Source of the DNA: Candidatus Polarisedimenticolia bacterium
GTDB lineage: Bacteria > Acidobacteriota > Polarisedimenticolia > JACPZX01 > DASXTC01
NCBI GenBank assembly: GCA_036505635.1
Contig: DASXTC010000021.1
Location: forward strand, 124,032 to 188,031
Direction: 5' to 3'
Length of the DNA stretch: 64,000 nt
Under the pieces are notes generated by a model, which ran no database searches, had not been told where the DNA came from, and saw nothing but the letters and a program-made list of their open reading frames with translations. Positions 5,968-39,292 of the stretch are shown here, one piece after another. Each line of letters opens with the position of its first letter. The stretch's first letter is position 1. The position numbers and the translations under genes are program-made.

Positions 5968-6394
5968 AGTCCTAGCCACCTTCTCCAGGAAGCACGCCTT
6001 CAAGCTCCTCAAGGCTCCTCCATTCAACTGCCCCGGTCGGCAACGGCAGCTCGAAGTCGATGAGCGCGGAAAGCAAACTCGACACCCGAGCGGAGGCCTC
6101 ACCTTCGGACCGAAGCACGGTCAAGGCACTGTAGGGCTTCTCGCATTTCACCTCCTCGCCGAGATACGCGGCTTCGAAATTCGGCAGTGACGCAATAAGG
6201 CGGGCATTGCCGAGGGCCTTCTGAACCTCTGTGCGGATGGAGTCGTTCAGCGCCCAAGCTGGGTTCCTGATTTCCTTGCCCGCCTTTCTATATGTAGGAC
6301 GATCACTGTCGTGGAGAACTGCGTACGGCGCCCCGAATTGATTCAGTATCTTAACGAGAGCAACCAGTGTCCGGGCTGCGTGAGCTGAAGCTCA
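5968..6394 (-). pseudogene. start-less remnant of an OLD-family (Toprim-domain) ATP-dependent endonuclease C-terminus
   Basis: Manual translation of the minus strand gives ASAHAARTLVALVKILNQFGAPYAVLHDSDRPTYRKAGKEIRNPAWALNDSIRTEVQKALGNARLIASLPNFEAAYLGEEVKCEKPYSALTVLRSEGEASARVSSLLSALIDFELPLPTGAVEWRSLEELEGVLPGEGG. There is no in-frame ATG/GTG/TTG. It has a Toprim-like hydrophobic-strand + DxD segment (AVLHDSD). The local GC content is clearly lower than the flanks. Confidence 0.4.
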
Positions 6395-6396
6395 GC

Positions 6397-7050
6397 CTAC
6401 TTCTTCTTGCCCTTGACGGGTGTGGCAGCGGCAGTCTTCGCAGCCTCTTCGGCGGCGGCCTTGTCGGCGTCAGCCTGAGCCGCGGCAGCGGCCGCTATTG
6501 CTACCTGCTTGCCCTCGGCGACGGTCTTCAGCTGGGCGAGCCCCTTCTCGATGTCGGTGCCGAGCATGTTGTCCATGTCCATGAACATGCCGAAGGCTTT
6601 GCCGATGAAATTGTGGTTCCCATCCATCGACCACGTCACGAACGAGCCGGTCGGCGTACCCGCGAGGGTGAGCGCACAGGTTGCCGTGGACTCCATCGGC
6701 TCCACAAACTCGAGCTTCATGCCCACCTTCTGGCCAGGGACGCTCTCTTCGATCGTCATCTTGCCCTTGCCGACTTCCTTGTTGCCGCTCCACGCATACG
6801 ACTGACCGACGCCCGCCGCGGGGCCTTCGAAGGTCTTCTGCATGTTGGGATCGAGCTTCTCCCACGGCGACCCGAAAAGAACCAAGACACCCGCAAACTG
6901 ATGGAGGTCGTTGAGAACACCGAACACGAGATCGGCTGGAGCAGCGACCTCGAGCTTGCGCTCGACGTGATAGGTGGACGGCCGTGTGGCCACCACCGCT
7001 ACGAAAAGGACCAAGACACCCGCAACACCGATGAGAATTTTCTCGAGCAT
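6397..7050 (-). CDS. SRPBCC (START/Bet v1/polyketide-cyclase fold) protein with N-terminal TM anchor and Ala/Lys-rich C-tail
   Basis: 217 aa. N-terminal hydrophobic helix, a beta-rich middle and an AAAAAAQADADKAAAEEAAK...KGKKK tail. Confidence 0.55.
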   Translation of the reverse strand: MLEKILIGVAGVLVLFVAVVATRPSTYHVERKLEVAAPADLVFGVLNDLHQFAGVLVLFGSPWEKLDPNMQKTFEGPAAGVGQSYAWSGNKEVGKGKMTIEESVPGQKVGMKLEFVEPMESTATCALTLAGTPTGSFVTWSMDGNHNFIGKAFGMFMDMDNMLGTDIEKGLAQLKTVAEGKQVAIAAAAAAQADADKAAAEEAAKTAAATPVKGKKK

Positions 7051-24089: not shown

Positions 24090-24278
24090 ATGCCGAACAG
24101 CAGCGGGACGTGGAAGACGGGCGAGAGGTGCATCCAGGCGGGCACCTACGAGTGCCTCAACTGCCGGCACCTGGGAGCCACCACTCACATCACCGTCGAG
24201 CCCGGCACGATTTTCCCCTACTGCACCGTCTGTAACCTGAAGGACAACACCTACAAGCTCCTTCCCAGGAAGCGGTGA
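24090..24278 (+). CDS. small Cys-rich zinc-ribbon protein
   Basis: 62 aa with C-x7-C-x2-C ... C-x2-C spacing (ERCIQAGTYECLNC ... YCTVCN). Confidence 0.4.
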   Translation: MPNSSGTWKTGERCIQAGTYECLNCRHLGATTHITVEPGTIFPYCTVCNLKDNTYKLLPRKR

Positions 24279-24361
24279 GCGCACGCTCCTCGAAGGGGCC
24301 CGGAAAGACCGCGGGGGCGGGTGCGCGGTCGGCCCCCCCGGCAAGCGCGACCACCGCCGGC

Positions 24362-26725
24362 ATGCGGCCGAGGTCCCGCCCGCTCATGGCGGGGATCCTC
24401 GCCGGCCTCGCGGCCGGTGGCTTCCTCCTCTACCTGTACTTCGGCGCGGGCCCCGCGCGCTTCAGCGGTCCCACCGGCGACTCCAGCGTGCTGCTCATCA
24501 CGATCGATACCCTGCGCGCCGACCATCTGGGGGCCTACGGTGACCGCGACGTCCGAACCCCCTTCATCGACACGCTGGCCGACGAGGGGGTGCTGTTCGA
24601 GAACGCCATCACGCCCGCCATCATGACTCTCCCCTCGCACGCCTCGATCCTGACGGGGACCTGGCCCCCCACGCATGGCATCCGCAACAACGGCGATTAC
24701 CGTCTGAGCCCCGGCGCCCTGACGCTGGCCGAGGTGCTGCGCGCGCGCGGACTCAGGACCGGCGCGGTGGTGGGCTCCTTCGTGCTCGACTCGATGTTCG
24801 GGCTCGACCAGGGGTTCGAGTCATACGACGACGCGCTGCCCGCGCGGTCGTCCAACCAGACCTTCTTCGCGGAGCGGCCGGCAGGCGCCGTCACCGACGC
24901 GGCGCTGAGATATCTCGGTTCGGTGAGGCCCGCGCGATTCTTCCTCTGGGTCCATTTCTTCGACCCTCATCATCCGTACACCGCGCCCACCTCCTGGCGC
25001 GAGCAGTACCCCCGCAGCGGATACGACGCCGAGATCGCCTACGTGGACTCCGAGATCGGACGGCTACTGGCCGGCATGAAGGAGATGGGGATCCGGGACA
25101 AGACACTGGTCGTGCTGGCGGCCGATCACGGCGAGGGGCTCGGGGACCACGGCGAGGAGTCGCACGGCGTGCTCCCCTACGAGGAGGAGACGCGCGTCCC
25201 GCTCATCTTCTCTCTGGCTCCGCACCTGCCGGCGGGACGCCGCGTGAAGGGGGTGGTCAGGACCGTGGACATCATGCCCACGATCCTTGAGCTCCTGAGG
25301 ATCGACCCCGAGGGAGCGGCTGCCCCCGTGCAAGGCACGCCTCTGTGGCGCCTGATGGCCGACGCGAAGGGGACGATGCCGGGCCTGCCGGCATACGCGG
25401 AGGCGATGGCGCCGCTGCTGTTGTATGGGTGGAGTCCCCTGACTGTGGTGCGGGACGACCGCTACAAGTACATCGAGGGGCCCCGACCCGAGCTGTTCGA
25501 CCTGGTCGCCGACCCTCGGGAGAAGAACGACCTGTACGCCGCGCGGGCGGACCTGGCGGCGCAGTACAAGACGAAGCTGGAGTCGCTGCGCCGGGAGGTC
25601 ACGCGAGAGGGGGCGGGAGCCGAGACGATCGCGCCCGACCCAGAGACGGAGGCGAGGCTGCGCTCCCTGGGCTACGCGACGGGAGGGGGCGCACGCCCGC
25701 CGGACTCCGGCGCGGGGGCCCTTCCCGATCCCAGGCAGATGGTGCCGGCCCTGGAGAAGATCAACCGAGTCTACGCCGCGTTTGGCTCCGGGCAGTACGA
25801 CGCCGCGGCGGCCGAGGCGCGGGAGATCCTGGCCGAGCATCCCGAGAACCGCTCGGTGCGCTTCTATCTGGCCGGGGCGCTCATGGAGACGGGACGCCAC
25901 GCCGAGGCGGCGCAGGAGTACCGGAAGATCCTCGACGCCTCCCCGAAGGACACCGAGGCGATGTCGAACCTCGGCTGGTGCCTGACCAACATGCAGCGCT
26001 TCGACGAGGCGACCGAGACGTTCCAGCGGGTGCTGGAGTTCTTCCCGGACCATATCTACGCGAAGGCGAGCCTGGCCAACATCGCCTTCATCAAGGGGGA
26101 CTACCGGGAGGCGTCACGTCTCTACAAGGAGGTCCTGCGCATCGAGCCCAACCACATGCCCTCGATCAAGACGATGGCAAAGATGTTCGAGGAGACGGGC
26201 AAGCTCGACGAGGCGGCGGTCTTCTGGGAGCACGCCACCGATGTGGACCCCGGCAACGTCGATGTGTGGATGAGCCTCGGGTGGGTCCGGTTCCAGCAGG
26301 GGAGGAACGACGACGCGCTGGCCGTGCTGGACCGCGCGAAGGAGCTCGCCCCCGACGCGCCCGAGCTTCTCGCGGCGGCAGGGGACGTGCGACTCGCGAT
26401 GGGGAAGATCGAGGAGGCCCGCGCGGACTACCAGCGGGCCATCCACCTGGCGCCGCGGCTGGCCGCCGGCTACTACGGGCTCGGGATCATCGAGGGGAAG
26501 CTGGGAGATCCCTTCAAGGCGCTCGACCTGGTCGCGCGCGCCGTGTTGCTCAACCCCGACAAGGTCGAATGGCGCGTCGACCTGGCCCACGCGCTGGTCC
26601 GGATCGGGCGCTACGGCGCCGCGGCCACCGAGCTTCAGAAGTACCTCGCGTCGGGCCAGGTCCCGCCCGAGCAGACGGAGAAGCTGCGCCAGGAGATCGA
26701 GAAGTACCGGCGCCAGCGAGGCTGA
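24362..26725 (+). CDS. sulfatase-like hydrolase/transferase (alkaline-phosphatase superfamily) fused to C-terminal TPR repeats
   Basis: N-terminal TM segment, then LLITIDTLRADHLGAYGD and LAADHGEGLGDHGE metal-site motifs. No C/S-x-P-x-R formylglycine motif. The C-terminal third is TPR-like repeats. Confidence 0.75.
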   Translation: MRPRSRPLMAGILAGLAAGGFLLYLYFGAGPARFSGPTGDSSVLLITIDTLRADHLGAYGDRDVRTPFIDTLADEGVLFENAITPAIMTLPSHASILTGTWPPTHGIRNNGDYRLSPGALTLAEVLRARGLRTGAVVGSFVLDSMFGLDQGFESYDDALPARSSNQTFFAERPAGAVTDAALRYLGSVRPARFFLWVHFFDPHHPYTAPTSWREQYPRSGYDAEIAYVDSEIGRLLAGMKEMGIRDKTLVVLAADHGEGLGDHGEESHGVLPYEEETRVPLIFSLAPHLPAGRRVKGVVRTVDIMPTILELLRIDPEGAAAPVQGTPLWRLMADAKGTMPGLPAYAEAMAPLLLYGWSPLTVVRDDRYKYIEGPRPELFDLVADPREKNDLYAARADLAAQYKTKLESLRREVTREGAGAETIAPDPETEARLRSLGYATGGGARPPDSGAGALPDPRQMVPALEKINRVYAAFGSGQYDAAAAEAREILAEHPENRSVRFYLAGALMETGRHAEAAQEYRKILDASPKDTEAMSNLGWCLTNMQRFDEATETFQRVLEFFPDHIYAKASLANIAFIKGDYREASRLYKEVLRIEPNHMPSIKTMAKMFEETGKLDEAAVFWEHATDVDPGNVDVWMSLGWVRFQQGRNDDALAVLDRAKELAPDAPELLAAAGDVRLAMGKIEEARADYQRAIHLAPRLAAGYYGLGIIEGKLGDPFKALDLVARAVLLNPDKVEWRVDLAHALVRIGRYGAAATELQKYLASGQVPPEQTEKLRQEIEKYRRQRG

Positions 26726-27733: not shown

Positions 27734-28468
27734 ATGGCGCAATGGCTCGTCTTTTTCGCCGGAATCCTCCTGGGCGCGGCCATCGCGGCGCTCCTGGCCC
27801 GGCAGGCTCACCGCCGCGCGCGCCGCGCCGAAGTCGAACGGCTCCGCCTGCTCGCCCACGACCTGCGCACGCCCCTCTCCTCCATCACGGCCTACAGCGA
27901 GATCCTGGCGGACGAGGAGGAGAGCGACCCGGCGCAACGCGCGCGCTTCCTCGGATTCATCCACGAGGAGACGCTGCGCCTTGGCGGGATCATCGACGAG
28001 CGGATCGCCGGCGACCGGGCCGCAGCCCCGGTTGCGGCCACGGCCGGGACGCCCCGGCACGCGCCCGAGAGCCCTCCCGCCCGCGGCCGCACCATCCTCG
28101 TTGTGGACGACGACCGGTTCATCGCGGACGCGACCCGGACGCTGCTGGCAAGGGAAGGGTACGAGGCGCTGGGCGCCTACGGCGGTGACGAGGCGCTCGA
28201 GAGGGCCCGGGGCTCCCGCCCCGATGTGATCGTGATGGATCTGATGATGCCCGGCATCAGGGGGGACGAGGCGCTTCGGCGCCTCAGGACCGATCCCGCG
28301 ACCCGCGACATCCCCGTGATCATCACCACGGGCGAGGTGGGCGCCCAGGCGCTCGAGGGGGCCGCCGAAGTCCTGGCCAAACCGATCACCCGCGAGGCGT
28401 TGCTGGCCGCGATCGACCGGGCCGCATGCGCTGCGGTCACACAGGGGGACAGGAGGGACGAGTCTTGA
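27734..28468 (+). CDS. membrane-anchored HisKA (phospho-acceptor) - receiver protein lacking an HATPase_c domain
   Basis: N-terminal TM helix. H-box LRLLAHDLRTPLSSITAYSEIL. Receiver domain ILVVDDDRF...DVIVMDLMMPG...KP. At 244 aa there is no room for N/G1/G2 ATPase boxes. Confidence 0.7.
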   Translation: MAQWLVFFAGILLGAAIAALLARQAHRRARRAEVERLRLLAHDLRTPLSSITAYSEILADEEESDPAQRARFLGFIHEETLRLGGIIDERIAGDRAAAPVAATAGTPRHAPESPPARGRTILVVDDDRFIADATRTLLAREGYEALGAYGGDEALERARGSRPDVIVMDLMMPGIRGDEALRRLRTDPATRDIPVIITTGEVGAQALEGAAEVLAKPITREALLAAIDRAACAAVTQGDRRDES

Positions 28469-28833
28469 AGAAGGTCCTGGTCTGCGACGACGAGCCGCAC
28501 ATCCTGGAGGCGGTGGCCTTCGTCGCGCGCAAGGAGGGATACACGGTTCTGACCGCCGAGGACGGCGAGCAGGGCCTCCGCCTGGCGCGCGAGGAGCGTC
28601 CCGGGCTCGTGCTGCTCGACCTGAACATGCCGATCAAGTCGGGATACCAGGTCTGCGAGGAGATCAAGAGCGATCCGGGCATGAAGGGCACGTACGTGAT
28701 CATGCTCACCGCCAAGGGGCAGGAGTCGGACCGCGCGCGCGGGGTGGCCGCGGGCGCCGACGAGTACATCACGAAGCCTTTCTCCCCGCGAAAGTTGCGC
28801 CAGAGGCTGGTGGAGATCCTGGGGACGCCGTGA
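28465..28833 (+). CDS. single-domain response regulator (CheY-like receiver)
   Basis: KVLVCDDEPHILE...LVLLDLNMPIKSG...ITKPF. Start at TTG 28465, preceded by GGAGG at 28453-28457. An alternative ATG at 28426 overlaps the upstream gene. Confidence 0.7.
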   Translation: MKKVLVCDDEPHILEAVAFVARKEGYTVLTAEDGEQGLRLAREERPGLVLLDLNMPIKSGYQVCEEIKSDPGMKGTYVIMLTAKGQESDRARGVAAGADEYITKPFSPRKLRQRLVEILGTP

Positions 28834-28844
28834 GGTGACGCACC

Positions 28845-30821
28845 GTGGGCGCTGACAACGAGACCGAGCTGCGCAGGCGCCTCGACGGCGTCACGGCCGA
28901 GCTGCTCTCCACGTACGAGGAGATCGAGGCCCTCACGACGGTGGCGGAGATCGCGGCCAGCAGCACCGACGTCGCGTCGGTGGGCCGGCGGATCCTCGAG
29001 GAGGCGGCCGGCCTCCTTCAGGCCGACGTCGCCTTCGTCATCTACACCGACCGGGAGCTCAAGGGCGAGGAGCCCGCCCCCGCCGGTGTCACGAACGGGG
29101 AGCGCGACGCGATCGCGGCCGCGCTGGCGAGGTGGCTGTCGGAGCAGCCCCGGCCCATCCTGATGGCCCCCTTCAGCGAAGGGGCCGGGATCCCCCACGC
29201 CCCCGACGCGCTGCTGGCCGTGCCGCTGCGGTGCGAGGGGCTGGTGCTGGGAGCCATGTGCCTGGGCCGGCGCGGCGAGGGGGCGACCTTCACGGCCGGC
29301 GATCTGAAGATCCTCTCGGTGCTCGGTTCGAGCGCGGCCTCCGTGCTCCTCCAGCGCAAGAACCTCGACCTGGTCAGATTGTCGCGCGGTCTGGAGGAGC
29401 GCAACCAGCTCCTCAAGGGGATCCTCGCCATCAGCCGCGAGATCGCCTCCACGCTGGATCTCGACCGGCTCCTGCACGCGCTGTCGAACCTCCCCACCCG
29501 CGCGCTGGGGTTCGACCGGTGCGCGGTCCTCCTGGACGAAGGCGGCAGCCGGCGGCTGCGCGCCGTGTCGGGAGCCGCGCACGTGGATCGAGGAGACACC
29601 GAGATGAAGTCGCTCGAGCGCGCGCTCGACTGGGTGGCCGGCCGGGGTACGCAGGTGACCGCGCAGGAGCGGGCGAGCGAGGGGGGGACGACCCTCGTGG
29701 CCGATCCTCCCGAGGCTGCCGCCCAGCTCGCCGCGCACATGAAGATGGCCGGGGCGCGGTCGTTCCTGGCCATCCCGATGTCCGATGACCAGGGGCTCCT
29801 GGGCGTTCTGTCGCTGGAGAGCGGCGCGGAGGGGTTCCTGGATGAGCGGCGACTGGAAGGAGCCACGATCCTTGCCAACCAGGCCACCGTCGCGCTGCGC
29901 AACGCGCAGCTTTACGGGGAGATGCCTCTCATCCGGCTGCTCGGGCCGTTGCGCGGCGGGCTGGCGAAGGTGCGGACACTTCCCCGAAGGAAGCTCGCGG
30001 CCTGGGGAGCCGCGGCCCTCGTGCTGATGGCGATCCTGATCTTCGGGCGCTGGAACCTGAAGGTTCCGGGCAACGTGACCATCCTGCCGTCCCGCATCGT
30101 GCTGGTGAGCGCCCGCGTGCGCGGCGTGATCCTCGAGGTGGGCCCCTATCACGAGGGGGATCGGGTCCCGAAGGGCGCGGTGCTCGCGCGGCTCGAGGTG
30201 CCCGACCTGAGGATGCGTCTCAACGAGGCGACCTCACAGGAGGAGAGCGCGCTGCGGGGCATGACCCGGCTGCAGGCCGAAGGACGGGCGGCGGATCTCG
30301 CCGTGGCGCGCATCGAGCTGGAGCGGTGGCGCAACGAGCGCGCGTTGCTGGCGGAGCGGATCGAGGAGGCGTCGATGCGCGCCCCCGTGGATGGGCTCCT
30401 CCTGACGCCGCGGCTGGAGGAGCGCGCGGGTGAGCTGCTGGAAGTGGGGGGGGTCTTCTGCACGCTGGCCGGCCTCGACCGCCTGCGCGTGGAGATCGCC
30501 GTCAAGGAGGTCGATGCCGACATCCTGGTGAAGCGCGGGCCCGATGGGCGGGAGCCGGCCGCGGCGGCCGCGCTCAAGTTCAGCGCCTTCCCCGCCGTCG
30601 ATTACCGGGCCCGGATCGTGAAGGTGCGCGCGGCGGCCGAGGTGATCGAGGGGGCGCGCTCGCTCGTGGCCGAGGGGGAGATCGAGGAGGGCCCGGAGGG
30701 AACCGGTGGCCTCAAGCCGGGGATGACCGGCTTCGCGCGGATCGACGCGGGCCCCAGGGCGCTCATCTCGATCATCCTGCGCAAACCGTACCGTTTCGTG
30801 AGGAGCATGATCTGGCTATGA
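28845..30821 (+). CDS. GAF-GAF-TM-HlyD-family membrane fusion protein
   Basis: Two N-terminal GAF-like regulatory domains. One TM helix (AAWGAAALVLMAILIFG). The C-terminal half has HlyD/biotin-lipoyl-like adaptor features (VTILPSRIVLVSARVRGVILEV..., coiled coil, RAPVDGLL, GMTGFARI). Confidence 0.7.
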   Translation: MGADNETELRRRLDGVTAELLSTYEEIEALTTVAEIAASSTDVASVGRRILEEAAGLLQADVAFVIYTDRELKGEEPAPAGVTNGERDAIAAALARWLSEQPRPILMAPFSEGAGIPHAPDALLAVPLRCEGLVLGAMCLGRRGEGATFTAGDLKILSVLGSSAASVLLQRKNLDLVRLSRGLEERNQLLKGILAISREIASTLDLDRLLHALSNLPTRALGFDRCAVLLDEGGSRRLRAVSGAAHVDRGDTEMKSLERALDWVAGRGTQVTAQERASEGGTTLVADPPEAAAQLAAHMKMAGARSFLAIPMSDDQGLLGVLSLESGAEGFLDERRLEGATILANQATVALRNAQLYGEMPLIRLLGPLRGGLAKVRTLPRRKLAAWGAAALVLMAILIFGRWNLKVPGNVTILPSRIVLVSARVRGVILEVGPYHEGDRVPKGAVLARLEVPDLRMRLNEATSQEESALRGMTRLQAEGRAADLAVARIELERWRNERALLAERIEEASMRAPVDGLLLTPRLEERAGELLEVGGVFCTLAGLDRLRVEIAVKEVDADILVKRGPDGREPAAAAALKFSAFPAVDYRARIVKVRAAAEVIEGARSLVAEGEIEEGPEGTGGLKPGMTGFARIDAGPRALISIILRKPYRFVRSMIWL

Positions 30822-31957
30822 GGAAAGGGTGCGCTCTGCTCGTCTGGGGGATGGCGCTCGCTGCGGCGGGGGCCGGCGGCTGCGACCGCTCGCGTCAGGC
30901 CGAGGCGGCGGCCGCCTCGACCCCGGGCGGGCCGGCGCCGGTGGAGGCGACCCCCACGCTCCCCTCCGCGCCCGCTCCCCGGACCATCGCTGCGGTGGGG
31001 GGCCGGCCGATCCCCCGCACGCTCCTGCTCGACAGCCACCTGCTGGTGGAAAGAGACGTGGCGGTGACCGCGCGGCGCGACGGCTTCGTCGAGACGATCC
31101 ACGTGGACCGCGGCCAGCTCGTCACGGAGGACGACCCACTGGCAACTCTCGAGCACGGCGATCTCCTCGTCAGCGAGAAGGAGGCGATGCTGGAGCTGGA
31201 GAAAGAGCAGGCCTCCTTCGAGCGCGCGGCGAGGCTTCACGAACAGGAGATCATCCCGAGAGAGGAGTTCGAGCAGGCGCGTCTGCGGCGCGACGCCGCG
31301 CAGAAGGCGCTGGAGCGGATCCGCTACGAGATCGGCAAGTGCGTCATCAGGGCGCCATTCGACGGCGTGGTCTCGGGACGCTTCGTCGAGAAGGGCCAGG
31401 TCATCAAGGAGGACGACGGAAGGCCGTTGTTTCAGGTGACGGCGCTCAGGCCGTTGCTGGCGCGCGTCTATCTTCCGGAGTGGGCGCTGTTCGGGGTCCG
31501 CGAGGGGCACCGCGTCGGCCTCGCGCCGGCCGCCTTCTTTCCGGCCGGCGGGGATCCCGACGGAGGCGGCATCGAGGCGAAGGTGCGCTGGATCAACCAT
31601 GTCCTGGACGCGGCCTCCGGGTCGGCCGAGATGCTCGTGGAGATCACCGGCGGGCCCGGCGCGGCCCGCCTGCGCCCCGGCATGTCGGTCCAGGTGCGCA
31701 TCGATCTGTCCTATGGGGCGGGAGCCGCCGGCGGTGGAGACATCGTGAGCCTGCCGCGCGAGGCGGTCGGCCCGTCTGAGCCCTCCCCGGGCCAGCGGAT
31801 CGAGCTTCAGGTCCTGACCAAGGGGGGCGCCATCGAGGCGCGCTCGGTCGTGCTGGGCTTCGTCGGGGACGAGCGTGTCGAGGTGCGACGCGGTCTGTCG
31901 GCGGGCGAGAAGGTCGTCCTCGGACCGGCGGCGCCTCCCCCTGCCGCCGTCCCATGA
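30818..31957 (+). CDS. HlyD/RND-adaptor-family periplasmic lipoprotein
   Basis: Lipobox AAGAGGC. Coiled-coil hairpin and beta-barrel adaptor segments (IRAPFDGVVSGR, RPGMSVQVRI). ATGA overlap with the upstream gene. Confidence 0.75.
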   Translation: MRKGCALLVWGMALAAAGAGGCDRSRQAEAAAASTPGGPAPVEATPTLPSAPAPRTIAAVGGRPIPRTLLLDSHLLVERDVAVTARRDGFVETIHVDRGQLVTEDDPLATLEHGDLLVSEKEAMLELEKEQASFERAARLHEQEIIPREEFEQARLRRDAAQKALERIRYEIGKCVIRAPFDGVVSGRFVEKGQVIKEDDGRPLFQVTALRPLLARVYLPEWALFGVREGHRVGLAPAAFFPAGGDPDGGGIEAKVRWINHVLDAASGSAEMLVEITGGPGAARLRPGMSVQVRIDLSYGAGAAGGGDIVSLPREAVGPSEPSPGQRIELQVLTKGGAIEARSVVLGFVGDERVEVRRGLSAGEKVVLGPAAPPPAAVP

Positions 31958-34149
31958 GCGCAACTCCTCGCCTGGCGCGGGGGGTCACGATCACCCGGCG
32001 GCAGGTCGGCGAGGATGAGGTCTACTATCTCGTCCGCGAGCCCCGCGGCGGCTCGTTCCTCCGCATGGGGGAGATCGAAGCCACGGTCCTGCGGCTGCTC
32101 GACGGCTCCCGGACCATCGAGGAGGTCTCCCGGGCGCTGGATCTGTCCCACGAGACGAACGTCGAGGCGCAGGTCATCGAGGAGTTCATCGGCTCGATGA
32201 CCCGCAAGGGGCTCGTGGAGAAACGCGGCTTCGATCCTGCGGCGTTCCGGCAGGAATGGCTCCAGCAGGCGCGGTCGCGGCGCAGGAGCCTCGGACAGCT
32301 CCTGGGCACCCTGGCCACGTTCAAGCTCCACCTCATCAATCCGCTGGGACTCTTCTCCCGTATCGTCGGCCCGCTGAGCTTCATCTGGTCTCCCGCGTTC
32401 GTCGTCGCGTCGCTCGCGCTGATGGCGGTGGCCGGGGTGATGGGGTTCGTCTATAGCGCCGAGGTGCTCGCATCGTCGCGAGTCTTCTGGGCCGGCATGA
32501 CCTCCTCGGCGGCCGCGTTCGCCTCCAACGCGCTCCTCTTCTACGTGATCTTCTTCGTGGTGATCGCGCTGCACGAGCTGTCCCACGGGCTGACGTGCGC
32601 CCATTTCGGCGGCAAGATCACCGACATGGGATTCATCCTCTTCTACCTGCAGGTGCCGGGCGTGTACTGCGACATCACCGATGCCTACTCGTTCGAGAAG
32701 CGCAGCCAGCGCCTCTGGACCACGGTGGCCGGCTGTTACTCGGGCCTCGTGCTGGCCTCCTTCGGGATGATCCTGTGGTGGGCGACCGAGCCGGGCGACC
32801 TGCTCAACAAGGCGGCCATCGTGCTGATGCTCGTGGGGGGGCCGCCGGTCGTGATGTTCAACTGGAACCCGCTGCTCAAGCTCGACGGCTACTACATTTT
32901 GATGGATCTGCTCGAAGCGCCGAACCTGATGGACAACTCGAGAAAGCACCTCGGGTACCTCTTCAAGTCGAGGGTGCTGCGGGTCCCGGTGGAGCCGGTG
33001 AGCGTCCCACCGCGTCTCCGGACGGCGTACGTGGTTTATGGGATCGCCAGCATCGCCTTCATCGCGCCATTCACGATCTACATGCCGGTGATCGTCTACT
33101 ACATCTTCTCCCGCCTGGTGGGGGAGGCGCTGGCGCTGCCGATCGCCGCGGTGATGGCGTACAGGATGGTGATGGTCTACGCCAGGAAGCTCTTCGAGAC
33201 GCTCAAGTACACATGGCTGTCGCACCGGCCCGCTCAGGCGGGAGGCGAGACAGGCCGGCTCCGTCCGGGGATGATGGGGGCCGGGGCCGCGGCGGGGCTC
33301 GCGCTCCTGGCGTTCGGGCCGCGGTTCGCGGTGAGAGCCGAGGGGACCGGCACGCTCGAGCCGCTCGAGAGGATCGAGGTGCGTGCCGCCTGGCCGGGAT
33401 TCGTCGCCGAGTCGGGAGGCTCCGGCGCGATGCCGGCGGAGGGAGCGCTGGTGCGGGCGGGGGATCCCCTGGTGCGCCTCGAGAACCTCGAGGTGGATGC
33501 CGGACGCCGCTCGGTCGATCTGGAGCTGGCGGCGCTGCGCGCGGACCTCTCCCGTCTGGAAGCGCGACGCGAGCCGGCACAGGCCATGATGAGACGCTCG
33601 GAGGAGCGGGCGCTTCAGGGGGACGCGCTCGTGCTGGCGAGGCGCGTGGAGGAGCTCACGCTGCGGGCGCCGATTGCCGGCGTGGTCCTCACGCCACGTC
33701 TTCAGGATAAGCTCGGGGCCTATCTCGGGTCGGGAGAGACCTGGTGCGTCATCGGGAGGATCGATCGTCTGCGCGTGCGCGTTCCGCTCAGCGAGAAGGA
33801 CCTGGGCCTCATCGACGAGACGAGCGAGGCCGGCGTCAAAGGGCCGCACCTGCCCGGAGAGATCTTCCGGGGACGCGTGACGCGAATGCCGGCGGGCAGA
33901 AGGCCCGCCCGGCCGGGGCTGCAGGGCCACCAGCCCCAGCCCGTGACCGCCGCCATGACGGCAACGCCCGGTGAGGGGGTCTCGCCGGTCTCCGGCTCGC
34001 TCCAGGTCGAGGTCGAGGTGGACAACGCGTCGGGGCTCCTGCGCCCCGGGATGACGGCCCAGGTCCGCATCTACGGCGAGCGCATGAGCCTCGCCGCCCA
34101 CGCCCTGCGCTGGGCGCACCGCCTTTTCAAGGGGAAGGTGTGGTGGTGA
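31954..34149 (+). CDS. three-domain fusion: PqqD/RRE-like N-domain - site-2-protease (peptidase M50) membrane domain - HlyD-like adaptor domain
   Basis: Residues 1-100 resemble a PqqD-type peptide-binding domain (EDEVYYLVREPRGGSFLRMGEIEATVLRLLDGSRTIEEV). HExxH is present as HELSHG inside a TM helix, plus the S2P NPLLKLDG motif. The C-terminal 250 aa have coiled-coil and RAPIAGVVLTP ... RPGMTAQVRI adaptor motifs. Confidence 0.7.
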   Translation: MSATPRLARGVTITRRQVGEDEVYYLVREPRGGSFLRMGEIEATVLRLLDGSRTIEEVSRALDLSHETNVEAQVIEEFIGSMTRKGLVEKRGFDPAAFRQEWLQQARSRRRSLGQLLGTLATFKLHLINPLGLFSRIVGPLSFIWSPAFVVASLALMAVAGVMGFVYSAEVLASSRVFWAGMTSSAAAFASNALLFYVIFFVVIALHELSHGLTCAHFGGKITDMGFILFYLQVPGVYCDITDAYSFEKRSQRLWTTVAGCYSGLVLASFGMILWWATEPGDLLNKAAIVLMLVGGPPVVMFNWNPLLKLDGYYILMDLLEAPNLMDNSRKHLGYLFKSRVLRVPVEPVSVPPRLRTAYVVYGIASIAFIAPFTIYMPVIVYYIFSRLVGEALALPIAAVMAYRMVMVYARKLFETLKYTWLSHRPAQAGGETGRLRPGMMGAGAAAGLALLAFGPRFAVRAEGTGTLEPLERIEVRAAWPGFVAESGGSGAMPAEGALVRAGDPLVRLENLEVDAGRRSVDLELAALRADLSRLEARREPAQAMMRRSEERALQGDALVLARRVEELTLRAPIAGVVLTPRLQDKLGAYLGSGETWCVIGRIDRLRVRVPLSEKDLGLIDETSEAGVKGPHLPGEIFRGRVTRMPAGRRPARPGLQGHQPQPVTAAMTATPGEGVSPVSGSLQVEVEVDNASGLLRPGMTAQVRIYGERMSLAAHALRWAHRLFKGKVWW

Positions 34150-36643: not shown

Positions 36644-37171
36644 TCAGGCGGCGCCGCGCTCGATGGTGTAGGACAACATCACGATGCCGCTCGGCAGGGC
36701 CTTGCTCTCGGAAAGCCGGAGCCGGGCCGCGTGCGCGCCGGTTTCCACGAGCGGGATCCCGCGTCCCAGGAGCACCGGGATCAGGCCGACCTCCACGGTG
36801 TCCACGAGATCGGCGTCGAGGAGACTGCGGAACAGTACCCCGCCGCCCATCAGCCAGATGTCCTTGCCTGGCTCGGCCTTGAGCGCCGCGACGGCCTGCT
36901 CGGCCGCCGTGGACACGATCGTGACGCCGGGGTGGTCGGCCGCGCGCAATGTCCGGGAGAACACGATCGCGCGCATCCCGGGCATCCCGCCGCCGGATCC
37001 CTGGCTGAGGGCGATCTCGAACGTGCGCCGTCCCATGAGGACCGTGTCGAACGCCTTGAAGAAGGCGGCGAAATCGATGGCCGGATCCATGATGATCCAG
37101 TCGTACTCGCCGCCGGGACCGGCGATGTAGCCGTCCAGGCTCATCGCGACGCTGTATCTGACTCGCCGCAT
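36644..37171 (-). CDS. dihydrofolate-reductase-family protein (RibD C-terminal domain type)
   Basis: MRRVRYSVAMSLDGYIAGPGGEYDW ... LMGRRTFE ... IWLMGGG pattern typical of the YwjB/RibD_C family. Confidence 0.75.
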   Translation of the reverse strand: MRRVRYSVAMSLDGYIAGPGGEYDWIIMDPAIDFAAFFKAFDTVLMGRRTFEIALSQGSGGGMPGMRAIVFSRTLRAADHPGVTIVSTAAEQAVAALKAEPGKDIWLMGGGVLFRSLLDADLVDTVEVGLIPVLLGRGIPLVETGAHAARLRLSESKALPSGIVMLSYTIERGAA

Positions 37172-37727
37172 GGCGGTCTCCCTGGTCGTCACCGCCGCCC
37201 GTGAGAGAGCGGGCGCGGCGCGCACAGCCTACCACTCTCGGCGCCGCGGATGGGTCCAGGCGCTCGCGCTCGGTGGCCTGGCCGGCATCGGCATGGAGAT
37301 CTTCTCGAACCTCGTCAGCCAGCCGCTCATCACGCGGCTCACCGGGTCGCCGCCGGACCTCTCCGACTTCCGGCCGCTCGTGGGGGACCTTAGGCTCCTG
37401 CTCCTCATGCTGGTGCCGATGTGGCTGCTGGCGGCCTTCGGCGAGGAGATGGTCTATCGAGGCTATCTGATGAACCGGCTTGCCGGCCTGTTCCACGGCA
37501 CGCCCAGAGGCTGGCTGGCGAGCCTGATCGCGGTCAGCGCGTTCTTCGGCTGGTCCCACCAGAGCCAGGGGCTCACCGGCATGCTGCAGGAGGGGTTCGC
37601 GGGGCTCCTGCTGGGAGCGCTCTACCTCGGCTGCGGCCGCACCTTGACCGTGCCCATCGTCGCCCACGGCGCAGCCAACACGCTGGCGTTCGTGCTGATC
37701 TTCCTCGACCTCTATCCAGGCGTGTGA
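37170..37727 (+). CDS. CPBP-family (CAAX protease / bacteriocin-processing) intramembrane metalloprotease
   Basis: The three CPBP motifs are present: EExxxR (FGEEMVYRG), FxxxH (FGWSH) and HxxxN (HGAANT). The 5' end is uncertain because ATG 37170 would overlap the divergent neighbour's start. An internal start near MEIFSNLV at about 37296 is possible. Confidence 0.55.
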   Translation: MAVSLVVTAARERAGAARTAYHSRRRGWVQALALGGLAGIGMEIFSNLVSQPLITRLTGSPPDLSDFRPLVGDLRLLLLMLVPMWLLAAFGEEMVYRGYLMNRLAGLFHGTPRGWLASLIAVSAFFGWSHQSQGLTGMLQEGFAGLLLGALYLGCGRTLTVPIVAHGAANTLAFVLIFLDLYPGV

Positions 37728-38707: not shown

Positions 38708-39292
38708 TCACCAGACGCCGGGGACGAGACGCTTGCTCCGCGCCCTGTACTCTTCGTAGTCCCTGCCGAACTCCTCCAGCATCATCCGCTCCTCGCGGGC
38801 GATGCGGAAGAGGATGAGGGTCACGAATGCGACCCCGTAGCTTGGGCCGGCGACCCAGTTGGGAACGACGAGTGCCTGGCCCGCCGAGTATAGGAGAAGG
38901 GCCAGATACATCGGATGGCGGACCGAGCGATAGATGCCCCGGGTAACGAGCTCGTGTCTCTCCCGAACCTCGAGCGTAATCGACCAATTCGCGCCGAGGT
39001 CCGCGTGCGACCGGTGAAGGAGCCACAGTCCGACTGCGTAGCACAGGATGCCGGCGATGAAGGGAACCGGGCGAAGCGGATAGTTCGCGAAGTCGAGCAA
39101 CGGCGTCACGACCCAGATGATCGGGAGGAGGAACCCGAGCGAAACGAGCGCCAGAAGGGCGACCTCCCGCGGCCCTTTCAGGCTCTTGACCACCTTGATC
39201 TCGCCGCTCCGCCGCCCGTGCACCCCGTGGGGGATGACGACCATGGCGATGGTGGCCACCAGAATGATCGCCTTCGCGAACCAGGGACTCAT
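38708..39292 (-). CDS. isoprenylcysteine carboxyl methyltransferase (ICMT/PEMT) family membrane methyltransferase
   Basis: Multi-TM protein. C-terminal motif LVTRGIYRSVRHPMYLALLL ... EERMMLEEFGRDYEEY matches the ICMT/PEM2 family signature. Confidence 0.7.
   Translation of the reverse strand: MSPWFAKAIILVATIAMVVIPHGVHGRRSGEIKVVKSLKGPREVALLALVSLGFLLPIIWVVTPLLDFANYPLRPVPFIAGILCYAVGLWLLHRSHADLGANWSITLEVRERHELVTRGIYRSVRHPMYLALLLYSAGQALVVPNWVAGPSYGVAFVTLILFRIAREERMMLEEFGRDYEEYRARSKRLVPGVW

Follow-up and report, generated by a model that had tools for sequence, protein, structure and literature searches.

The gene at 31954-34149 (+) in the 64,000 nucleotides (nt) analysed here of contig DASXTC010000021.1 (the whole stretch is called the window below; its G+C content is ~68-72%) encodes a protein of 731 amino acids (aa) that unites three parts in one chain. 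These are a PqqD-fold domain of the kind that recognizes leaders of peptides made by the ribosome and modified after translation (RiPPs), i.e. a RiPP recognition element (RRE), a peptidase M50 core of the site-2 protease (S2P) type, and a transmembrane (TM) anchor followed by a HlyD-type membrane fusion protein (MFP) module. Three HlyD-family genes, adjacent and overlapping, make up a conserved cassette of which this gene is the third, a fact that had been overlooked when the DNA was interpreted from its sequence alone (the sequence-only reading). We see about an even chance that the fusion protein and its cassette constitute a leader-dependent machine for peptide processing and export. The underlying logic, i.e. 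recognition, intramembrane cleavage and a periplasm-spanning adaptor, had been put forward in the sequence-only reading; it is the best supported of the interpretations considered, and it is one that we infer. The following features were identified in the fusion gene:

31954..34149 (+): RRE - S2P - HlyD fusion gene, an intact open reading frame (ORF) that begins with ATG and has 731 codons before its stop codon
31981..32238 (+): RRE/PqqD-fold winged-helix domain, residues ~10-95, predicted to be cytoplasmic
32311..33243 (+): peptidase M50/S2P membrane core, residues ~120-430
32572..32586 (+): HELSH zinc-binding/catalytic motif, with H207, E208 and H211 inside TM helix H186-217; invariant in 72 homologues
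32860..32889 (+): NWNPLLKLDG motif, with N303, P306, D311 and G312 invariant in the same 72 homologues
33247..33315 (+): seventh TM helix, residues 432-454 (helix H432-454 of the structural model), predicted to lead the chain into the periplasm
33322..34134 (+): predicted periplasmic HlyD/MFP module with a lipoyl-like barrel-sandwich, an alpha-hairpin (H512-537, H541-567), a beta-barrel and a disordered insert (656-674)

All three domain assignments of the sequence-only reading were upheld by sequence and structure comparison, and the strings that it had quoted are present in the ORF, at residues 11-64 (the N-terminal string), 207-211 (HELSH) and 310-312 (LDG). In the AlphaFold2 (AF2) model of the full-length protein, the N-terminal domain is a winged helix composed of strands E17-19, E22-28 and E35-39, followed by helices H40-48, H55-66 and H72-84, and its core has pLDDT values >90. 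The solved structures nearest to this domain are RREs that bind leader peptides. The N-terminus alone reached 17.6 bits (E=0.0048) with the Pfam family PF05402, which is below the gathering score of 23.4 bits; at the level of the family, 27 of 36 homologues matched PF05402 (best E=1.7e-8), and the family profile of the domain matched PqqD 3g2b with E=4.4e-6.

In S2P enzymes, the Asp residue of the NxxPxxxLDG motif is the third ligand of the zinc. The HExxH motif, likewise invariant, is not in a soluble loop; it is found toward the cytoplasmic end of the long hydrophobic helix H186-217, so that the expected placement of the catalytic signatures in membrane helices was confirmed. The NxxPxxxLDG motif is situated at the junction of helices H297-303 and H311-320 in the AF2 model. 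A beta-hairpin (225-239) comes after the HExxH helix; in the model, it and the strand 122-128 look like the membrane-reentrant sheet of S2Ps. The isolated core scored 28.5 bits with the Pfam family PF02163 (gathering score 27.2), and 12 of 13 homologous cores also matched this family; the full-length protein was slightly under the threshold with 25.1 bits. Searching the PDB by sequence, with the single sequence or with a profile, did not retrieve an S2P for the core; fold comparison was the only PDB approach that succeeded, and it revealed a resemblance to solved S2P cores, including SpoIVFB and RseP.

Hydropathy and the AF2 model agree on seven hydrophobic membrane helices. The predicted cytoplasmic loops contain 2, 5 and 5 Lys and Arg residues, the periplasmic loops 1, 0 and 1, and the loop 411-436, which precedes the seventh TM helix, is rich in both. 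The seven helices and the positive-inside distribution of loop charges therefore predict a cytoplasmic N-terminus with the RRE and a periplasmic C-terminus with the MFP module (residues 457-731). The invariance of H207, E208, H211 and D311 in the 72 homologues points to an active protease and not to a passive pore.

By Pfam and fold comparison alike, the C-terminal module is folded as a genuine MFP, and a Foldseek search with the full AF2 model returned MFP matches only. The coiled coil and beta-barrel of the sequence-only reading are thus both there, alongside the lipoyl-like domain, and a membrane-proximal domain is not evident in the module. The lipoyl/alpha-hairpin/beta-barrel fold is the same as in the classical adaptors of type I secretion systems (T1SS) and tripartite efflux systems (HlyD, MacA, EmrA, AcrA), and a TM anchor ahead of the MFP module is also found in HlyD, MacA and EmrA. 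However, the classical adaptors pair with an ABC, MFS or RND pump, whereas here an MFP is covalently attached to a protease, and the operon contains three MFP genes and no pump.

The fusion gene is the last of a five-gene operon, the first four genes of which are:

27734..28468 (+): HisKA + receiver (REC) protein, 244 aa, Pfam HisKA and Response_reg, TM helix at residues 1-25, no HATPase_c; first gene of the operon
28465..28833 (+): stand-alone REC protein, 122 aa, Pfam Response_reg with E=4.9e-30; conserved in the related loci L088-L090
28845..30821 (+): GAF-GAF-TM-HlyD protein, 658 aa, Pfam GAF (twice), HlyD_D23 and HlyD_3, TM helix 382-407
30818..31957 (+): HlyD-family MFP, 379 aa, Pfam HlyD_3, HlyD_D23 and Biotin_lipoyl_2, lipoprotein-like signal peptide ..AAAGAGGC

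The GAF-GAF-HlyD gene, the lipoprotein HlyD gene and the fusion gene are linked by 4-nt overlaps (ATGA) and are a translationally coupled cassette. Both GAF domains of the 658-aa protein are predicted to be cytoplasmic, and its membrane-fusion module is predicted to be periplasmic. The HisKA-REC protein without HATPase_c and the stand-alone receiver form an odd, phosphorelay-like pair that is conserved in the subfamily of the window (L088-L090). A divergent NAGPA gene is found upstream of the operon; downstream, the Dyp-type peroxidase gene (34127-35023/35119, -) is convergent and shares 23 nt (34127-34149) with the 3′-end of the fusion gene. The closest relatives, L088-L090 (53-56% identity), have retained the same five-gene unit, located between NAGPA and sucCD/ndk.

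The distribution of the architecture was determined with an exhaustive profile search of 1.84 billion representative proteins (E<=1e-30). It yielded 12,180 proteins that match the fusion profile; the best 150 representatives have lengths of 602-949 aa, and nearly all of them align to the profile essentially from end to end. At least 600 GTDB species genomes encode the fusion, and the GTDB matches listed span Acidobacteriota, Planctomycetota, Verrucomicrobiota, Gemmatimonadota, Eisenbacteria, Oligoflexia, Chlamydiales and one metagenome-assembled genome (MAG) of the Alteromonadaceae. Because of these numbers, the architecture is common and not unusual; the attribute "unusual" of the sequence-only reading does not apply to a protein that occurs in thousands of clusters at 50% identity.

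Related loci are designated with L numbers, and the best 80 were used for comparison of the gene neighbourhoods. A GAF-HlyD orthologue is present in 61 of the 80, and in 59 a HlyD orthologue directly precedes the fusion gene. The cassette recurs across Acidobacteriota, Planctomycetota, Verrucomicrobiota and others, and the versions of the Planctomycetes were confirmed by Pfam. Further partners vary between groups:

L083 10237-12222, L073 12283-13911, L029 12759-13979 (+) and L049, L022, L011 (-): TolC-like OEP gene near the fusion gene (six loci)
L037 13433-14932, L039 12624-14144, L046 12265-13761, L067 13238-14734, L032 12238-12621 (+): SecA_DEAD-like gene directly downstream
L044 7427-7858, L048 12318-12674, L054 12182-12715, L060 3369-3803, L061 6764-7132 (+): DUF3467 (PF11950) gene, ~120-145 aa, directly downstream
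L023 14763-15203, L026 14735-15172, L035 15545-15985, L053 14779-15219, L070 14844-15284: RsbW-like anti-sigma kinase (HATPase_c_2) gene
L086 3709-4047: example of a STAS (RsbV-like) gene

The OEP genes belong to loci of Verrucomicrobia, Oligoflexia and one Planctomycetales member. The SecA_DEAD-like genes were detected by tblastn with a SecA probe in five Planctomycetota/Phycisphaerae loci; the same search, with a probe validated by the positive loci only, did not find SecA_DEAD in the window or in any Acidobacteriota locus. In one Verrucomicrobial context, an ABC transporter is encoded beside the fusion homologue. The Pirellulales loci that carry DUF3467 are devoid of the GAF-HlyD and HlyD partners, and three more copies of DUF3467 (L025, L034, L065) are farther from the fusion gene. 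The RsbW-like kinase and STAS genes, which flank cassettes of the Terriglobia type, suggest control by partner switching.

Loci of the Terriglobia type also contain candidates for the substrates of the RRE. Between the end of the fusion gene and a convergent gene for an NtrC-type sigma54 activator they have a gap of ~0.5-1 kb, which is occupied by a small peptide gene on the strand of the activator. The peptides (45-116 aa) share a conserved N-terminus, M-x-IQKKSLIS-x-L-x-x-x-KKA, followed by a linker rich in S/T/A/P and by tandem repeats. The repeats are cationic and hypervariable, with 3-13 residues per unit, and the unit differs from genome to genome: (LAKGT)n, (GLSKQV)n, (AKRDL)n, (GRA)n, (ATKNL)n, (KPGNAL)n, (ARVTPx)n, (GGKNL)n. 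A hidden Markov model (HMM) of the leader identified the gene in 23 loci:

L003, L006, L007, L009, L012, L013, L017, L023, L026, L028, L035, L038: IQKKSLIS-type peptide gene
L040, L045, L052, L053, L058, L062, L064, L070, L072, L075, L086: IQKKSLIS-type peptide gene, which was also found in L091-L093
L035 12966-13301 (-): example of a peptide gene

In 15 of 20 cases, a sigma54 -24/-12 element (TGGCAY-N5-NTGCW) is present 64-96 nt upstream of the start codon, in addition to a Shine-Dalgarno motif; base frequencies predict only ~1e-3 matches of this pattern per locus by chance. The family comprises 861 clusters in a collection of 5.8 billion proteins, all of them labelled "hypothetical". Pfam and NCBIfam provided no assignment, and NCBIfam gave sub-threshold compositional matches only, to histone-like and pentapeptide-repeat models. 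When genomic contexts were seeded from the peptide instead of the protease, three of three led back to the cassette, at times with two or three peptide paralogues, in the layout sigma54 activator, peptide gene(s), convergent fusion gene, HlyD, GAF-GAF-HlyD and then STAS. A conserved leader and a hypervariable core beside an RRE-protease represent the classical signature of an RRE substrate, and the IQKKSLIS-type peptides are plausible substrates. Recurrent small ORF clusters near the cassette (clusters 4, 7, 11 and 12) were also considered as peptide genes and were rejected; they shadow the NtrC-type and STAS genes, in antisense or in an alternative frame.

A second type of leader may exist in other subfamilies. 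ORFs that start with LE(D/E/S)R(I/R)(A/L)(P/L)(S/A), either adjoining the fusion gene or in its vicinity, were found in five loci:

L084 10814-11101 (+)
L087 7176-8399 (+), which runs on into long G/S/N/K-rich repeats
L016 ~6340-6700 (+)
L025 near 3035 (-)
L054 near 17397 (-)

The eight regular-expression matches to LE(D/E/S)RIAPS do not differ significantly from the ~4 expected by chance, and three of them are N-terminal and adjoin the fusion gene (L016, L084, L087).

In the proposed machine, the cytoplasmic RRE would capture a peptide or small protein from the ribosome by its leader, and the S2P core, with its zinc site near the cytoplasmic face of the membrane, would cut the leader off. The HlyD/MFP module beyond the seventh TM helix and the two co-translated MFPs, one GAF-bearing and one a lipoprotein, might then build a periplasmic sleeve. 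A TolC-like outer-membrane factor, its gene located elsewhere, would be the docking partner of the sleeve, so that the product would exit the cell. The GAF domains as well as the upstream HisKA-REC and REC proteins might gate or regulate the system. The observations behind this proposal are the folds of the three domains, catalytic motifs that are intact, the topology predicted from sequence and model, the conservation of the three-MFP cassette and the linkage with peptide genes in the Terriglobia-type relatives; peptide binding, cleavage, hetero-oligomeric assembly of the MFPs, export and its energy source are what we infer from them. In a more far-reaching version, which we regard as less likely than not, the RRE-S2P-MFP protein and the two further MFPs would form a hitherto unrecognised class of trans-envelope machine with leader recognition in the cytoplasm, leader removal in the membrane and an MFP/TolC duct in place of a canonical ABC exporter. 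Its substrates would include the new and very large sigma54-regulated peptide family of soil Acidobacteriota, with a conserved leader of ~20 residues and hypervariable cationic repeats of 3-13 residues, and peptides with LE(D/E)RIAPS-type leaders in other phyla.

Several results weigh against export. According to gene calls and probes, the 64-kb window contains neither an energy source (ABC, RND, MFS or SecA_DEAD) nor an OEP gene, and thus export would have to proceed without a motor or an exit visible there. Of the T1SS trio (ABC transporter, MFP and TolC-like factor) only MFPs are encoded in the window, and no ABC, RND or MFS inner-membrane partner is among the genes of the operon. RiPP tailoring enzymes were not found near the fusion gene. 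In the window, the leader HMM, the sigma54 pattern and Tandem Repeats Finder were all negative, i.e. peptide genes with either type of leader, matches to the sigma54 promoter and ORFs with tandem repeats are absent, and a candidate peptide gene is also missing beside the closest homologues (L088-L090). The link between peptide and cassette is an adjacency on opposite strands in one clade only. Lastly, regulatory proteins make up the conserved neighbourhood (HisKA-REC and REC in the window; STAS, RsbW-like kinase and NtrC-type activator in Terriglobia), which would suit signalling just as well.

S2P enzymes classically act in regulated intramembrane proteolysis (RIP), e.g. RseP, SpoIVFB and Eep. 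The main rival explanation is a RIP signalling device, in which the S2P core would cleave a membrane-tethered regulator or the remnant of a signal peptide, the RRE would hold its cytoplasmic part, and the three MFPs would serve as a periplasmic scaffold, or would sense the state of the envelope, instead of being a duct for export. SpoIVFB and RseP are among the structural matches, the conserved neighbours, together with the GAF domains on the partner MFP, are all signalling proteins, and the window is devoid of a transporter, an ATPase and an OEP, all of which speaks for this explanation. Nevertheless, we consider it unlikely, because the N-terminal domain best matches leader-peptide-binding RREs, the closest sequence model is that of a RiPP leader peptidase, OEP, SecA_DEAD and ABC genes adjoin homologues of the fusion gene, and the leader-bearing peptide genes and the cassette co-localise reciprocally. 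The HisKA-REC protein, the only membrane-tethered protein of the operon, was set aside as a RIP substrate, because its predicted orientation (N-out, C-in) is opposite to that of usual S2P substrates.

A second alternative goes back to a study of bacteria of the Planctomycetes-Verrucomicrobia-Chlamydiae (PVC) group, Proteobacteria, Nitrospirae and Chlorobi, in which "secondary SecA_DEAD" proteins were described as the centre of a conserved module (Kamneva, Poole & Ward 2015, PLoS One, PMC4452313). That module is composed of GAF(+HlyD), HlyD/biotin-lipoyl and Peptidase_M50(+HlyD) proteins, at times with OEP, and has no ABC transporter; it was proposed to be a T1SS-like system with SecA_DEAD as motor and M50 as pore, with a biological role that is "completely unknown" (PMC4452313). 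The publication mentions neither PqqD/RRE nor Acidobacteria nor any substrate. The clustering of GAF(+HlyD), HlyD/biotin-lipoyl and M50(+HlyD) is shared by the window (28845-34149), but the defining SecA_DEAD gene is missing from it and from all Acidobacteriota loci, as far as the SecA probe shows. Applied to the protein of the window, the model implies T1SS-like secretion in which the M50 core is mainly an inner-membrane pore that replaces the ABC permease, while protein transport is powered by a separate ATPase, which would be SecA_DEAD where it exists or, in Acidobacteriota, an unlinked one. It has in its favour that it was devised for this very GAF/M50/HlyD module, that SecA-like genes directly follow the fusion gene in L032, L037, L039, L046 and L067, and that some loci encode large proteins with the N-terminal motif LE(D)R(I/R)(A/L)(P/L). 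The four invariant residues H207, E208, H211 and D311 and the lack of SecA_DEAD in the window and the Acidobacteriota loci speak against it. In addition, we know of no S2P fold that conducts polypeptides, and altogether a pore function appears distinctly improbable.

The entry in GenBank that is identical to the fusion protein, from a Candidatus Polarisedimenticolia (Acidobacteriota) MAG, is named "efflux RND transporter periplasmic adaptor subunit" by NCBI, but the view that this is an ordinary efflux RND/HlyD periplasmic adaptor that serves a pump for drugs or metals and merely happens to be extended at its N-terminus, although in line with the bona fide MFP fold at the C-terminus, is effectively refuted by the domain evidence and untenable, because residues 1-455 are a conserved RRE and a catalytically intact S2P, the operon has no RND, ABC or MFS pump gene, and nearly all of the best 150 representatives have kept the full architecture. 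The name is therefore misleading for thousands of proteins.

Pairwise fusions of the three parts are already documented. The leader peptidase of the daptides, MpaP, is an established case of an S2P with an RRE fused to its N-terminus (PMC10028931), and the fusion protein shares with it the N-terminal RRE on a polytopic HExxH/LDG S2P core. The NCBIfam model of the daptide intramembrane metalloprotease, NF041824, aligns to residues 5-411 with E=3e-47, and the alignment takes in 374 of the 379 profile positions, covering RRE and protease. In contrast, MpaP lacks the C-terminal TM helix and HlyD module, and it stems from Gram-positive Actinobacteria and Bacilli, without periplasm-spanning partner proteins. 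Also unlike MpaP, the fusion gene does not have the daptide genes MpaB, C, D and M nearby, and neither a DUF-RRE MpaB, an oxidative decarboxylase, an aminotransferase, a methyltransferase nor precursors ending in Thr are among the called neighbours. An identity with MpaP was thus rejected, i.e. the score with the equivalog model NF041824 is 161.5 bits, compared to a cutoff of 300, and the daptide gene context is missing.

YydH/LiaK and the TMcin leader peptidase TmcP (NF058609; PMC13252029) are likewise membrane-embedded HExxH proteins of the S2P clan that cleave leaders off small peptides, and catalytic mutants of TmcP accumulate the precursor. The YydH/LiaK model NF058609 gives a weak match to residues 193-329 of the fusion protein (E=2.4e-11). 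However, these proteases have four TM helices, no RRE and no MFP module, and their products are exported through separate ABC transporters.

The fusion of M50 and HlyD is documented by the T1SS-related module. The protein family abounds in databases and hence does not represent a new kind of system. The literature search retrieved no paper that joins M50, HlyD and PqqD, no follow-up of the 2015 module, and nothing relevant on RREs with M50 or on either leader motif. Within this literature, three aspects appear to be undescribed, i.e. the RRE at the head of the M50-HlyD protein, the Acidobacteriota version that lacks SecA_DEAD and has two-component, STAS or NtrC neighbours, and the peptide family with a leader and tandem repeats as likely cargo.

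If leader-dependent export is true, a cassette that is very common among bacteria from soil and water (Acidobacteriota, Planctomycetota, Verrucomicrobiota and others) would mature and secrete peptides as a self-contained system. RRE-guided leader recognition would then reach beyond RiPP tailoring enzymes to an envelope-spanning exporter of Gram-negative bacteria, the "T1SS-related module" of 2015 would gain a logic of substrate recognition, and the question would arise where export obtains its energy if there is no ABC transporter. The likely cargo would be the leader-plus-repeat peptides, hundreds of which are unannotated, and this could be tested in cultivable Terriglobia such as Granulicella.

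Two further observations concern the surroundings of the operon. The gene at 24275-26725 (+) of the window encodes a protein (779-816 aa) in which a sulfatase domain is joined to a long array of TPRs, and it is kept upstream of the operon in L088 and L090. On the other side, genes for an Rce1-like/CPBP intramembrane protease (37170-37727, +) and an ICMT/PEMT-like methyltransferase (38708-39292, -) are ~1 kb apart, a pair that recalls eukaryotic CAAX processing.

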